Below the pieces are notes generated by a model, which was not told where the DNA came from, did not search any database, and saw only the letters and a list, made by a program, of their open reading frames with translations. DNA of 62,734 bases from assembly GCA_017470585.1 (NCBI GenBank), contig JAFUYI010000002.1, forward strand, positions 1 to 62,734, in the 5' to 3' direction. Within the stretch, counting starts at the first letter, position 1; the number at the start of each line of letters is the position of its first letter. The position numbers and the translations under genes were made by a program. This document shows, in pieces, positions 18,887-35,193 of this stretch. Source of the stretch: Alphaproteobacteria bacterium. GTDB lineage: Bacteria; Pseudomonadota; Alphaproteobacteria; RF32; CAG-239.

Positions 18887-19155
18887 AAAAACTTCCTTCT
18901 TTAGTTTCTTTATAACTTTAATAAAAGAAACCACCTTTTGGGTTATTCACCCTAGAGGTGGTCGGAAGCTAGAAACTGACACTTGAATCAGTGCAAAGTA
19001 TTTGATGTATCTCTTATTCCTTTGCCTTCCGACCATTATAGTAGGAAGAATTTTTACGTTTTTCTTAAAAACGTCAAGTGAGAGGCTTCTAGACCTCAAA
19101 GCGGCTTTTCGCTCACTTCAATTCCTACCCTAGCATATAAAATCTTTTATGTAAA
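18887..19155 (-). ncRNA. Promoter plus structured leader, copy 4
   Basis: TTTACA-N17-TAGGGT; CTAGAA/TTCTAG and CACTTGA/TCAAGTG; TGGTCGGAAG/CTTCCGACCA (compensatory change). Confidence 0.85.
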
Positions 19156-24512: not shown

Positions 24513-24815
24513 CTAATAAGGGATTCGCCTCACGCAGCTGTTTCCGTCATAGCTGTAATTGGCAACTCTTCCGTTGATGATTGTAAAACGGGCATTACAC
24601 CACCTTGTGGAACAATGTCCCTCAAAGCAGCTGAATTTTTTATCTTCATATTGCAGAAAACGTTGTGCCTCGGAGTTATATACGGAAGTAGGATTGCCGA
24701 ATCTTCTTATAAGTTCCGATTCGCTTATTCCGACAGCCGAAGCCAGTCTTTCTTCATAATAATTGACACAGCCGCTGCAAAATATCACTAAAAGCAAAAA
24801 AATATATTTTTTCAT
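24513..24815 (-). CDS. Small lipoprotein under the cassette leader
   Basis: Lipobox CSGC; GISESELIRRFGNP...C-ARF; not homologous to the pilin-like family past the signal peptide. Confidence 0.75.
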   Translation of the reverse strand: MKKYIFLLLVIFCSGCVNYYEERLASAVGISESELIRRFGNPTSVYNSEAQRFLQYEDKKFSCFEGHCSTRWCNARFTIINGRVANYSYDGNSCVRRIPY

Positions 24816-25083
24816 CTCTTAAACTTCCCTTTTTTAAGTTTTCTATTGATAAAAAAGAAAACCACCCGCGGGGATATATCCTGCGAGGTGGCCGGAAGTT
24901 TGTGACTGACTGTTAGCTCAGTGCGAAGTATTTGGGCAAGCCTTATTCCTTCGCCTTCCGACCATATCGGCAGGAAGATTTTTACGTTTTCTTTGGAAAC
25001 GCTAACAGGAGAGGTCACAACACCCCGAAGCGACCTTTAACTCGCTCTGAAATTACCCTACCATAAAAAAATTTTTATGTCAA
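24816..25083 (-). ncRNA. Promoter plus structured leader preceding the lipoprotein gene
   Basis: TTGACA promoter; TTGTGAC/GTCACAA, CTGTTAGC/GCTAACAG, TGGTCGGAAG/CTTCCGGCCA; terminator. Confidence 0.83.
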
Positions 25084-28039: not shown

Positions 28040-28500
28040 TGAACACCACAAGCTGTCGTCCTGAACCACCAAGCTGTCGTCCTGAACTTGTTTCAGGACC
28101 TCAAGATTCCTAAACAAGTTCGGCATCCTTTCCTTTTTATGTCATCAATGCCGGGCTTGATCGGATTATCCATTCCCCTCACTGACGTCATCAATGCCGT
28201 GCTTGACACGGTATCCAGGTCTATAAATAAGCAAATTGTTTTACCTGGACGCCGCATCAAGTGCGGCGTGACATAGTAGGGGAAGAACGCCGAATAGATA
28301 GGCGGCGTGACATAGGAGAGGAAGGATACCGAAGAGATAGCGGCAGGTGACGGGGAGAATCTTAAAAATAGATTCCTAAATAAGTTCGGATGATAAGGGA
28401 GAGTAAGGTCGTATACCAGTTTTGTCATGCTGAACTTGTTTCAGCATCTATTTTTTGAGATCCTGAAACGAGTTCAGGATTGACAAAGGAGGGTAAGGAT
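28040..28500. repeat. REP/RPE-like palindrome cluster
   Basis: Same motif set as 84-460 and 11036-11370. Confidence 0.8.
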
Positions 28501-28594: not shown

Positions 28595-28627
28595 ACCCTG
28601 CGGAATCGGATTAAGATTCCGCAGGGT
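28595..28627 (-). terminator. Terminator of copy 7, shared with copy 14 (62665-62697)
   Basis: ACCCTGCGGAAT / ATTCCGCAGGGT. Confidence 0.75.
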
Positions 28628-28642
28628 TTTTGCTGATTTTAA

Positions 28643-29149
28643 TTACGACTCGGGTGTATATTGAATAGTTACACTGCCGAAATCATAAACTTTAGGAGCA
28701 GGAACAACGCCACCATACGATGCAAAGCCTGTTACCGCAAATTCATAACCGCTTACATGGCCAATAACTAAACGGGCTTTAAGCTTATCGCCATATTCAC
28801 CGCTGTTGATATATATGTCATAATCTCCACCTTCCTCAAATGATAACACATTTTCGTAATTGGCGGGATTAGGAATATTAGCGGTAAATCGTCCCGCCGT
28901 CATAGAACCGGAGATAACACCGACTTCATTATAATCTTCACATCCATCAACCTCTCCGCTACAATCAACACTTCCATAAGTTTGACTTGGATCAATGGTC
29001 ATATTCCAGCTGATATTTCTTGTTACATTTAAACTCACATCGTGAGCGATGGTGGCGGTAACGGTCATAGTTGCAGAGTTGTCCGCGTAGGCGCAATAAC
29101 TGCCTATGGAAACCGCAGCAATACCTAATAGTAAAATATATTTTTTCAT
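28643..29149 (-). CDS. Secreted pilin-like protein, copy 7 (close paralog of copy 14)
   Basis: SATMTVTATIAHDVSLNVTRNISW; GVVPAPKVYDFGSVTIQYTPES identical to copy 14. Confidence 0.72.
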   Translation of the reverse strand: MKKYILLLGIAAVSIGSYCAYADNSATMTVTATIAHDVSLNVTRNISWNMTIDPSQTYGSVDCSGEVDGCEDYNEVGVISGSMTAGRFTANIPNPANYENVLSFEEGGDYDIYINSGEYGDKLKARLVIGHVSGYEFAVTGFASYGGVVPAPKVYDFGSVTIQYTPES

Positions 29150-29414
29150 AGTTTAACGTCCTTTTCATATTAAAATTTAAGATGAAAAGCTGCGCTCGTG
29201 AAACTCAAGAGGCGCAGCCGGATGTTGATCACTATAACGTATAATAGTCCCGCATATTAAGCTTGGCAGCATATTCTGCAGGCATCCGGCTGCATAATAA
29301 AGCCAGACTGCCGATTTATGTTTCGGCACAAACAAAACGTTAGAGGCGATCAAACCCCAAAGCGAGAATCACTCGCTCCAAAATTAAGTTAACATATCGT
29401 TTGATTTGAATCAA
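29150..29414 (-). ncRNA. Highly diverged structured leader, copy 7
   Basis: TTGATT-N17-TAACTT; GCAGCCGGATG/CATCCGGCTGC replaces the antiterminator, GCTGCGC/GCGCAGC the terminator; TTGATC/GATCAA and TAACGT/ACGTTA pairings. Confidence 0.82.
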
Positions 29415-29489
29415 GCAAAAATTAAAAAAATGAAGAATTTTATAATTTTTATTATTCTCCGCCATTTCTTTACATACTTAAACATCAAT

Positions 29490-29790
29490 CGCCGAGCTTG
29501 ACTTTGGCATCAGGTCTAAAATCGGCTTATTTTTTAACCTGGACGCCGCATCAAGTGCGGCGTGACATAGAAGAGGAAGGACTCCGAAGAAATGAGCGCG
29601 TGACATGAGAGGGGAGGAACGCCGAAGAGGGGAGTGACGAGGAGGGGAAAGACCTCAAAAAAATAGATGCTGAAACAAGTTCAGCATGACATTGGGAGAG
29701 TAAGACCAAACACCATTTTTGTCGTCCTGAACTTGTTTCAGGACCTCAAGATTCCGAAACAAGTTAGGAATTGACAAAGGAGAGTGAGGC
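29490..29790. repeat. REP/RPE-like palindrome cluster
   Basis: Inverted near-copy of ~112-342; left part is also an inverted match to ~61730-61850. Confidence 0.82.
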
Positions 29791-34665: not shown

Positions 34666-34927
34666 AAAAACTTCCTTTTTTTATTAAAGTTATAAAAAAG
34701 AAACCACCTGTTGGAGAGGCACTCCGCGAGGTGGTTGGAAGTTAGCAACTGATTAGAGGATCAGTGCAGAGTATTTGACTTATCTCTTATTCCTCTGCCT
34801 TCCAACCATTATAGCAGGAAGAATTTTTACGTTTTTCTTAAAAACGCCTCTAAAGAGGTTGCTACACCTCAAAGCAGAATTTCCCTGCTTCGTTTTTCAC
34901 CCTAGCATAAAAAATTACGCTTGTCAA
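34666..34927 (-). ncRNA. Promoter plus structured leader, copy 8
   Basis: TTGACA-N17-TAGGGT; TAGCAAC/GTTGCTA and TTAGAGG/CCTCTAA. Confidence 0.85.
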
Positions 34928-34940
34928 AGCAAAATTTGCT

Positions 34941-35193
34941 TTGACAATAAGATTTTTTTGTGCTAGCTTAAATTTGAAGTGAATGAAGATTCACTTTGAG
35001 GTTTGAAGACCTCTCTAATGTCGTTTATGCTAAAACGTAATTTAGTTTGTCCGCCTTTTTGGTTGGAAGTCTGCAAAATATAAAGAATATGCGGAACTAT
35101 TACATTAGATAGTCTTCAACTTCCAGCCACCTCGCGGGTGAAAAACCCAACAGGTGGTTTTTTTTATGACGTTAATAAAAAAAGGAAGTTTAG
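34941..35193 (+). ncRNA. Promoter plus structured leader, copy 9 (reference copy)
   Basis: TTGACA(34941)-N17-TAGCTT(34964) with TG; TTGAAGAC/GTCTTCAA, TCTAATGT/ACATTAGA, TGGTTGGAAG/CTTCCAGCCA; terminator 35127-35165. Confidence 0.88.

Follow-up and report, generated by a model that had tools for sequence, protein, structure and literature searches.

The locus and its genes

The window analysed here, a stretch of 62,734 nt taken in full, is contig C30 of a 1.55-Mb genome assembled in 102 contigs. It carries 15 signal-peptide genes, of which 14 are paralogs coding for proteins of ~160–200 aa and one codes for an unrelated protein of 100 aa, and in front of each of the 15 lie a promoter of its own and a leader of ~200 nt. 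Fourteen of the leaders are of one standard type and a single one, on the minus strand at 29150–29414, is a variant; the core motif of the long helix described below occurs 30 times at one mismatch or less, against an expectation of 3.8. Since a standard leader (24888–25051) also precedes the unrelated 100-aa protein, which has a lipoprotein-like start (24513–25051, minus strand), the leader serves genes beyond the paralog family. Elsewhere in the window, two standard leaders stand back to back (34731–34894 on the minus strand and 34973–35130 on the plus strand), their divergent promoters ~80 nt apart.

The open reading frame behind the variant leader (28643–29149, minus strand) codes for a signal-peptide protein of 168 aa, a member of the giant family, and is followed by a gene terminator with a 13-bp stem (28595–28627, minus strand), for which an 83-nt segment gives 24 BLAST matches in the genome. 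A Pfam search with the protein found no family, and its structure model, beta-rich and with a pLDDT of 72.4, returned nothing from Foldseek at E 0.001 or better. A wide structure search gave weak matches to FimA (Z 4.0), Caf1 (3.9) and PapA (3.6) as well as to phage tailspike domains (4.1), and we regard the likeness of the modelled protein to chaperone-usher pilins as weak and not decisive. A literature search for DUF4402 returned no match.

Elements of the variant leader

The variant leader, of which all coordinates below are on the minus strand, begins with a putative −35 box (29414–29409) and a putative −10 box (29391–29386) separated by a 17-nt spacer, with a TG extension of the latter at 29394–29393; the layout is that of the standard copies, and the promoter as a whole (29386–29414) is 87–95% identical to other variant-class promoters. 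At the opposite end, a ribosome-binding site, AAGGA (29159–29163), read from the sequence like the promoter boxes, lies 9 nt ahead of the ATG. Because a consensus scan for promoters and terminators picked up neither kind of element, whether in the variant leader or in the standard one at 61.9 kb, our calls of both come from inspection of the letters; the loop limit of the terminator scan, 8, is below the 11-nt loop of the variant.

Between the promoter and the ribosome-binding site, alignment to the covariance model places a 5′ terminal hairpin, P0 (29378–29360; 98.4% of cells paired in nine subclass sequences), and the hairpin P1 (29358–29343), with a GGGG/CCTC stem including one G-U pair. 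The loop of P1 (29353–29348) is the 5′ strand of pseudoknot 1 and pairs over 6 bp with 29230–29225; the linker after P1 (29341–29337) is that of pseudoknot 2 and pairs over 5 bp with 29240–29236, within the loop of P5. The hairpin P2 (29334–29319) is found in both the model and the subclass alignment, and an extra pairing, P2′, joins its loop (29328–29323) with 29314–29309 in the MFE fold and according to RNAalifold. The long (antiterminator) helix is formed over 11 bp by strand 2 (29293–29283) and strand 3 (29224–29214), the latter directly adjoined by the 3′ strand of pseudoknot 1. Between these strands lie P4 (29282–29249), which has kept the letters of its conserved GAAUA/AAUA internal loop from the standard class and holds a small inner hairpin (29270–29261), and P5 (29248–29231), an ACTAT/ATAGT hairpin; P5 and strand 2 are seen in the model and the subclass alignments alike. 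Upstream, strand 1 (29301–29312) is a candidate anti-antiterminator with strand 2 as its partner, on the basis of duplex energy, the MFE fold and RNAalifold.

The predicted leader terminator (29179–29218) has a stem of 9 bp (29218–29209 with 29197–29189) with one bulged C, an 11-nt loop and a predicted energy of −20.2 kcal/mol. The U tract that follows, UUUUCAUCUU (29188–29179), is short and interrupted, with four U and then CAUCUU, and with five U in eight; given this, termination at the variant leader may be weak. The terminator overlaps the long helix by 5 nt (29218–29214), and the same overlap is found in the standard class. The helices, the pseudoknots, the promoter spacing and the overlapping terminator listed in the earlier note are all present at 29150–29414 on the minus strand.

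The variant is a diverged member of the family

The earlier note had proposed a covariance model built from the other 14 copies as a check on whether it would find the variant. Our model of this kind, R1, was built from the 14 standard copies of the window only and has six nested helices; it finds the variant end to end, aligning positions 1–162 of 162 without any non-standard pair at 95.1 bits and an E value of 1.4e-23. On the window, the training copies score 131.8–163.3 bits and the next best matches reach 12 bits at most; across the genome, all six variant copies introduced below score 92.5–100.2 bits and three intermediates 94.0–102.8 bits. A sequence-only profile of the same columns gives the variant 50.0 bits (E 1e-14) and the others 104.7–145.4 bits, and about half of the variant's R1 score, ~45 bits, therefore comes from the pairing terms. 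On all the family features open to testing, the variant qualifies as a genuine structured leader and as one of the family.

The variant was initially described as having replaced nearly all its sequence while keeping every helix. The helices are indeed kept, but the replacement was overstated: the mean identity to the 14 standard copies is 47.7% (44.1–54.1), compared with 65.2% among the standard copies themselves, and 46 of the 58 columns invariant in the standard copies are retained, those of the unpaired core included. All 12 changed invariant columns fall in the antiterminator helix or the terminator. With the standard leader the variant shares the layout of the putative promoter, the six nested helices, both pseudoknots, the letters of the unpaired core, and the overlap between the terminator and strand 3; it differs from the standard leader in being rewritten in five of the ten long-helix pairs, in the terminator stem, in strand 1 and in the loop of P0, and in having stronger helices, a longer terminator loop and an interrupted U tract.

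Covariation and selection on the fold

Selection on the leader fold is supported already by the standard copies. Across the 14, with both pseudoknots included, 97.8% of the cells form pairs and both partners have changed at 29 of 48 pairs; this covariation was reached by none of 500 shuffles, and slid controls were 36–46% paired. In the subclass, nine sequences have 98.5% of their cells paired and both partners altered at 19 of 52 pairs; a set of 45 leaders, drawn from this genome and 21 others, has 98.1% of cells paired and both partners altered at 30 of 36 pairs, although this last alignment was fitted to the model and so leans towards it. In the pseudoknots, the pairs changed on both sides are five of six pairs of pseudoknot 1 in the subclass and five of five in the standard copies, and five of five and seven of seven pairs, respectively, of pseudoknot 2. 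The MFE fold of the variant, at −76.9 kcal/mol, has a z-score of −4.5, and none of 200 shuffles folds as well.

The view in the earlier note that the variant is the strongest internal evidence for a selected fold holds as far as selection is concerned, but the 14 standard copies covary strongly alone. The variant's own contribution is evidence for the switching helices, which hardly vary in the standard class. In the long helix, seven of ten pairs never vary among the 14 standard copies, while in the variant five of the ten model pairs depart from the standard consensus on both sides, and three of these five are pairs that never vary among the 14. One of the changes is a flip from A-U to U-A inside the otherwise fixed GGAAG/CUUCC core. 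In the 45 aligned leaders this pair is A-U in 37, U-A in seven and G-U in one, and the seven carriers of U-A are the six variant copies and one leader of the genus g10. In the terminator stem, four of nine pairs are changed on both sides within the subclass.

RNAalifold on the subclass finds three of the six pairs of P2′ changed on both sides; in the standard class, pairing of the P2 loop with downstream sequence did not rise above shuffles in a per-sequence test (4 of 166), and the same test is invalid for the variant class, where the folding step chose an alternative hairpin. P2′ may be a third pseudoknot or a further alternative helix overlapping strand 1, and it is unproven for the standard class.

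Four strands rewritten together

All four alternately pairing strands are rewritten in a matched way in the variant sublineage. Duplexes with the strand's own partner are far stronger than the corresponding cross-class duplexes at each of the three interfaces: −15.2 versus −7.2 and −8.5 kcal/mol for strands 1 and 2, −23.7 versus −5.4 and −9.3 kcal/mol for strands 2 and 3, and −16.9 versus −9.1 and −5.9 kcal/mol for strands 3 and 4. Strand 2, strand 3 and the terminator arm form co-adapted haplotype sets in the standard class, in the variant class and in both intermediate classes, and the matching extends to single changes, a C>U in strand 3 of one variant copy being met by a G>A in the terminator arm.

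Support is poorest for strand 1, whose part is held less firmly than the co-change of strands 2 and 3 and the terminator arm. In the variant at 29150–29414, its duplex with strand 2 reaches −17.1 kcal/mol, and the pairing, together with the terminator, is present in the variant's MFE fold and in the RNAalifold consensus of the variant class. It beats at least 95% of 100 shuffles in five of the six variant copies; the 95% level is exceeded in 32 of 55 sampled standard copies, 7 of 18 copies from other genomes, one of five intermediates and neither of the two intermediates of the second type. Within the subclass, no pair between strands 1 and 2 is changed on both sides.

A sublineage within the genome

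A single variant leader is what the window shows, as the earlier note had it, but the description does not extend to the genome. An nhmmer profile of the standard copies finds 269 leaders at E < 1e-3, of which 241 lie away from contig ends. Among the 247 leaders whose model start falls inside a contig, 221 are standard, six carry the signature of the variant, five and two belong to two types of intermediates and 13 are untypable. These copy counts rest on the nhmmer profile, the genome search with R1 having scored 150 of 1058 candidates, and they are a floor, as many of the 102 contigs end inside leaders. Rather than one copy that has replaced its sequence, as first suggested, we see a sublineage of its own, accompanied by intermediates within this genome. 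The full variant copies lie on contigs C30, C25, C41, C60, C64 and C17; their leaders are 84–85% identical and differ from one another by paired changes, and the gene behind the leader is intact in five of the six, the sixth lying at a contig end. Exact pieces of the variant leader also occur in contigs of four DNA runs of one study, which may stem from the source sample, the pieces being short and subject to cross-mapping between paralogs. No RNA run is listed for the stretch.

A pattern search found a seventh, partial copy on contig C81 (G000:C81:13040-13111, plus strand; L044:341-412). It consists of the three-way-junction half alone, lacking the 5′ domain and with P1 deleted in the model alignment, and it has a promoter-like site directly upstream, a hairpin and U run of its own and no gene of the family downstream. 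No stand-alone copy of the standard type was seen, all 12 of the 5′-truncated matches sitting at contig ends.

Leaders move as modules

The earlier note suggested that leaders are exchanged as modules, and the comparison of leaders with the genes that they precede bears this out. In a sliding comparison, the stretch from promoter to start codon (29463–29144) is 75–100% identical to other variant copies and 38–72% identical to standard copies of the same gene clade. The body of the gene shows the reverse: 29023–28584 is 65–98% identical to genes with standard leaders and 28–60% identical to the genes behind the variant copies of C60, C64 and C41. The intervening signal peptide and first strand (29143–29024) are conserved in all copies. 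The breakpoints of the swap are thereby mapped to a position just upstream of the −35 box and to the conserved region coding for the signal peptide, with a downstream recombination zone, comprising the signal peptide and the first conserved strand, that runs from 29149 to ~29024 on the minus strand.

The trees tell the same story. The gene tree was computed from the mature part, from residue 46 on, of 71 of the 224 genes, namely all genes with variant or intermediate leaders, the five nearest relatives of each and 25 random standard genes. On it, the five variant genes need five changes, at least three of them forced by well-supported branches, and the variant module is present in at least three gene clades; a single clade of variant-class genes is rejected by the AU test (lnL difference 366, p 4.3e-6). 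The leaders of these five group together in their own tree with an SH-aLRT support of 99 and, joined by three intermediates, in a larger clade with support of 98, a grouping that is partly circular because a feature of the leader was used to define the variant group. The class of the leader and the clade of the gene do not agree.

On the upstream side, the flank outside the leader module (29470–29700, minus strand) had been taken as a sign of close kinship with the copy at 61.9 kb. Its segments are 90–100% identical to the flank of that copy, but BLAST gives 172 and 67 matches for them in the genome, and the flank is a copy of a dispersed repeat instead of a mark of shared ancestry. The cassette as a whole is bracketed by dispersed-repeat copies, at 29470–29700 and 28189–28456. 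Metagenome contigs contain joints across the cassette whose sides are too short to trust.

Distribution in other genomes

R1 has matches in 51 of 60 other genomes of the bacterial family, spread over 22 of 23 genera and scoring 70–100 bits, the range of the variant itself. At the loci L003–L022 from other genomes, the leader lies ahead of lipoprotein-like, prepilin-like and glycosyltransferase-like genes, and the terminator is a short stem with a conserved loop. The end of the long helix in other genomes resembles that of the intermediate and variant classes, not that of the standard class. BLAST with the variant leader as query, run on 281 further genomes of the family with at most two candidates scored per genome, found nothing at E 1e-5.

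The pattern of the flipped pair matched in 11 other genomes and in none of 28 genomes of the same genus. Among the 11 loci, only L032 of genome G033 is a true leader, at 63.3 bits; the remaining loci were rejected as leaders, with L040 scoring 20.1 bits and the others at chance level. At L032:1254-1653 of this genome, which belongs to genus g10, two leaders are adjacent and one of them has the flip from A-U to U-A while being otherwise typical of the family; as read from the alignment, its strand 1 has an A opposite the flipped U. The flip in G033 could reflect either convergence or kinship with the variant class. The tree of the 45 leaders does not place the variant lineage relative to other genomes (support 79–90, 166 columns), and we therefore do not claim that the variant is older than the standard class.

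At gathering scores, two tRNAs are all that Rfam recognises in the window, and none of its families covers the leader; with the limit relaxed to E 10, hits in the variant region are at chance level, the best being queA at 20.2 bits compared with a gathering score of 52.6. The leader is absent from the matches listed by a literature search on antiterminator, pseudoknot and pilin leader RNAs, and a search on cis-regulatory RNA in multigene families gave unrelated matches only.

A proposed mechanism and its alternatives

We propose that the leader acts as a transcription attenuator and that the variant, one of a family-wide set of 5′ leader RNAs of ~200 nt, is functional. The conserved core would be a three-way junction of the long helix, P4 and P5, locked to the 5′ domain by the two pseudoknots and surrounded by the four alternately pairing strands. 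Pairing of strand 1 with strand 2 and of strand 3 with strand 4 would form the terminator and stop transcription prematurely; pairing of strand 2 with strand 3 would form the long helix, remove the base of the terminator and permit read-through. When either the long helix or the terminator is forced, the terminator state is lower in energy by 9.1 kcal/mol in the variant copies (n = 6), by 11.5 kcal/mol in sampled standard copies (n = 56) and by 13.0 kcal/mol in those of other genomes (n = 17), all computed for nested folds that ignore the pseudoknots. Judged by these energies, the terminator would be the default state and the gene would be off by default; we infer that an input stabilising the pseudoknotted core, be it a small ligand, a protein or the kinetics of folding, switches it on. 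Because the gap of the variant falls inside the standard range, it has been preserved through the rewriting, and with the letters of the unpaired core kept as well, the sublineage would most likely respond to the same input at a similar set-point. The module of promoter, leader, terminator and ribosome-binding site would move between gene subfamilies by homologous recombination, with one anchor immediately ahead of the −35 box and the other where the conserved signal peptide is encoded. Taken as a whole, this account of an attenuator in a variant sublineage, with four matched strands and modular recombination, is in our judgement probably correct.

The earlier note also raised the possibility of an orthogonal subclass. 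The subclass is real, with six full copies and one partial one, but its orthogonality is speculation, the same trigger being the simpler assumption for leaders that keep the unpaired core. Were the variant class to answer a trans-acting partner of its own, such as the RNA of C81, a subset of genes would be separately controlled. The C81 copy does carry the variant signature, and its strands are complementary to strands 2 and 3 of the variant leaders only; given the weakness of cross-class pairing, an RNA of this kind would be class-specific, and no standard counterpart standing alone was seen, the 5′-truncated matches being confined to contig ends (12 of 12). The strands of the C81 RNA, however, pair with each other within the molecule, its transcription is putative and the copy may be a truncated relic, while the 46 of 58 invariant columns kept by the variant, unpaired core included, indicate a shared input, and in a cis-acting switch the strands can drift together without any orthogonality. 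We consider a separate channel very unlikely. The extended form of the idea, with two mutually non-interfering versions of the switch, a C81 RNA acting in trans on the variant leaders and the sRNA-Xcc1 family discussed below as the free-standing domain, has an equally small chance in our estimate. If a trans-acting C81 RNA did exist, it would mean separate control of a subset of ~250 surface-protein genes, and the orphan sRNA-Xcc1 family, taking the idea further, would represent the leader's switch domain in free-standing form.

Somewhat less probable still, and to our mind quite improbable, is that the variant is a decaying or neutral relic, which no longer regulates and in which the helices are merely inherited. 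One might expect as much of a leader that scores only 51.6 bits against the standard profile, has a weak U tract and is rare (6 of 247). Yet where the six copies diverge in the pseudoknots and the terminator, they do so pair by pair (both sides changed in 19 of 52 pairs, 98.5% of cells paired), the genes are intact behind five of the six and the sixth is at a contig end, the two states are separated by an energy gap within the range of the standard class and the module has spread to at least three gene clades.

Regulation by a leader peptide, in which translation of a frame opened by a conserved AUG, located at the 5′ edge of strand 2, would let the position of the ribosome select the helix, is an idea to which we give hardly any credence. 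An ATG is found at this edge in 202 of 219 standard copies and in five of the six variant copies, the sixth having GTG, but in only 6 of 19 leaders from other genomes; the frames that it opens range from 4 to more than 40 codons, their peptides are unrelated between the classes and no purine-rich ribosome site lies upstream, and we rejected the idea on these grounds. In the variant at 29150–29414, the AUG is at 29295–29297, 2 nt outside the long helix. A symmetry at the level of DNA, such as a recombination or protein-binding site, is just as far-fetched: it would suit cassettes that recombine and are flanked by dispersed repeats, but G-U pairs are frequent on the sense strand only (the second pair of P1 is G-U in eight of nine subclass copies), the long-range covariation of the pseudoknots and a terminator directly before the ribosome-binding site fit an RNA, and the breakpoints lie outside the structured part.

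Returning to the attenuator, the variant class amounts to a natural mutate-and-rescue experiment on an uncatalogued leader RNA which, in this small genome of a rumen alphaproteobacterium, would control about every sixth gene. Which strands compete is hard to read from the standard copies, where the long helix and the terminator hardly vary; the variant identifies the switching part and sets it apart from the conserved core, which is expected to bind the trigger. It is the best available evidence both for the competing helices and for modular recombination, in which the gene bodies of a giant surface-protein family are reshuffled separately from the units of promoter and switch. The sub-threshold link to sRNA-Xcc1 is also strengthened.

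Comparison with known systems

The closest catalogued relative may be sRNA-Xcc1 (RF02221), an 88-nt RNA of Xanthomonas integron cassettes (PMC2996969; bioRxiv 10.1101/2025.06.18.660453), located, according to the latter, upstream of symE and in the same orientation. A leader acting in cis and an sRNA acting in trans would both suit such a position. The standard copy at 18952–19034 aligns with all 87 positions of the RF02221 model at 36.9 bits, below the gathering score of 53, whereas neither the variant nor the stand-alone copy of C81 has any match at E up to 10. The likeness lies in the 3′ half of the leader, which comprises a closing helix, two hairpins, the first with an AAUA/AAUA internal loop and a smaller hairpin inside it, and a pyrimidine tail. 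In contrast to the leader, sRNA-Xcc1 lacks the 5′ domain and the pseudoknots and, according to its authors, is trans-acting; the C81 copy has a layout like that of sRNA-Xcc1, though without a match to the model.

In its proposed working, the leader resembles the ON-type transcriptional riboswitches. In these, of which the pbuE adenine riboswitch is an example, the closing helix shares bases with an intrinsic terminator and a stabilised core prevents termination. Here too, the closing helix of the core overlaps the terminator, and the terminator state would be the default according to the nested-fold energies. The resemblance is one of architecture and of a conserved unpaired core; the core of the leader, a double-pseudoknot three-way junction, is unlike the catalogued classes, and unlike ON-type riboswitches, the leader is present in hundreds of copies per genome, ahead of surface-protein genes.

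Three-tier attenuators with an anti-antiterminator are known from the leaders of pyr operons, bound by PyrR, and from the trp leader. The leader studied here shares with them a set of four strands with alternative pairings of 1 with 2, 2 with 3 and 3 with 4; it differs from them in having no conserved leader peptide and in that the support for strand 1 is uneven across the classes.

The exchange of modules has a parallel in the bab genes of Helicobacter pylori, where 5′ regions are exchanged between paralogous genes for surface proteins. Here too, conserved junctions are the sites at which paralogs exchange regulatory 5′ modules and gene bodies with one another. Unlike in the bab genes, the unit exchanged in our case is a whole promoter together with a structured RNA switch, and the family within which it moves comprises more than 220 genes.
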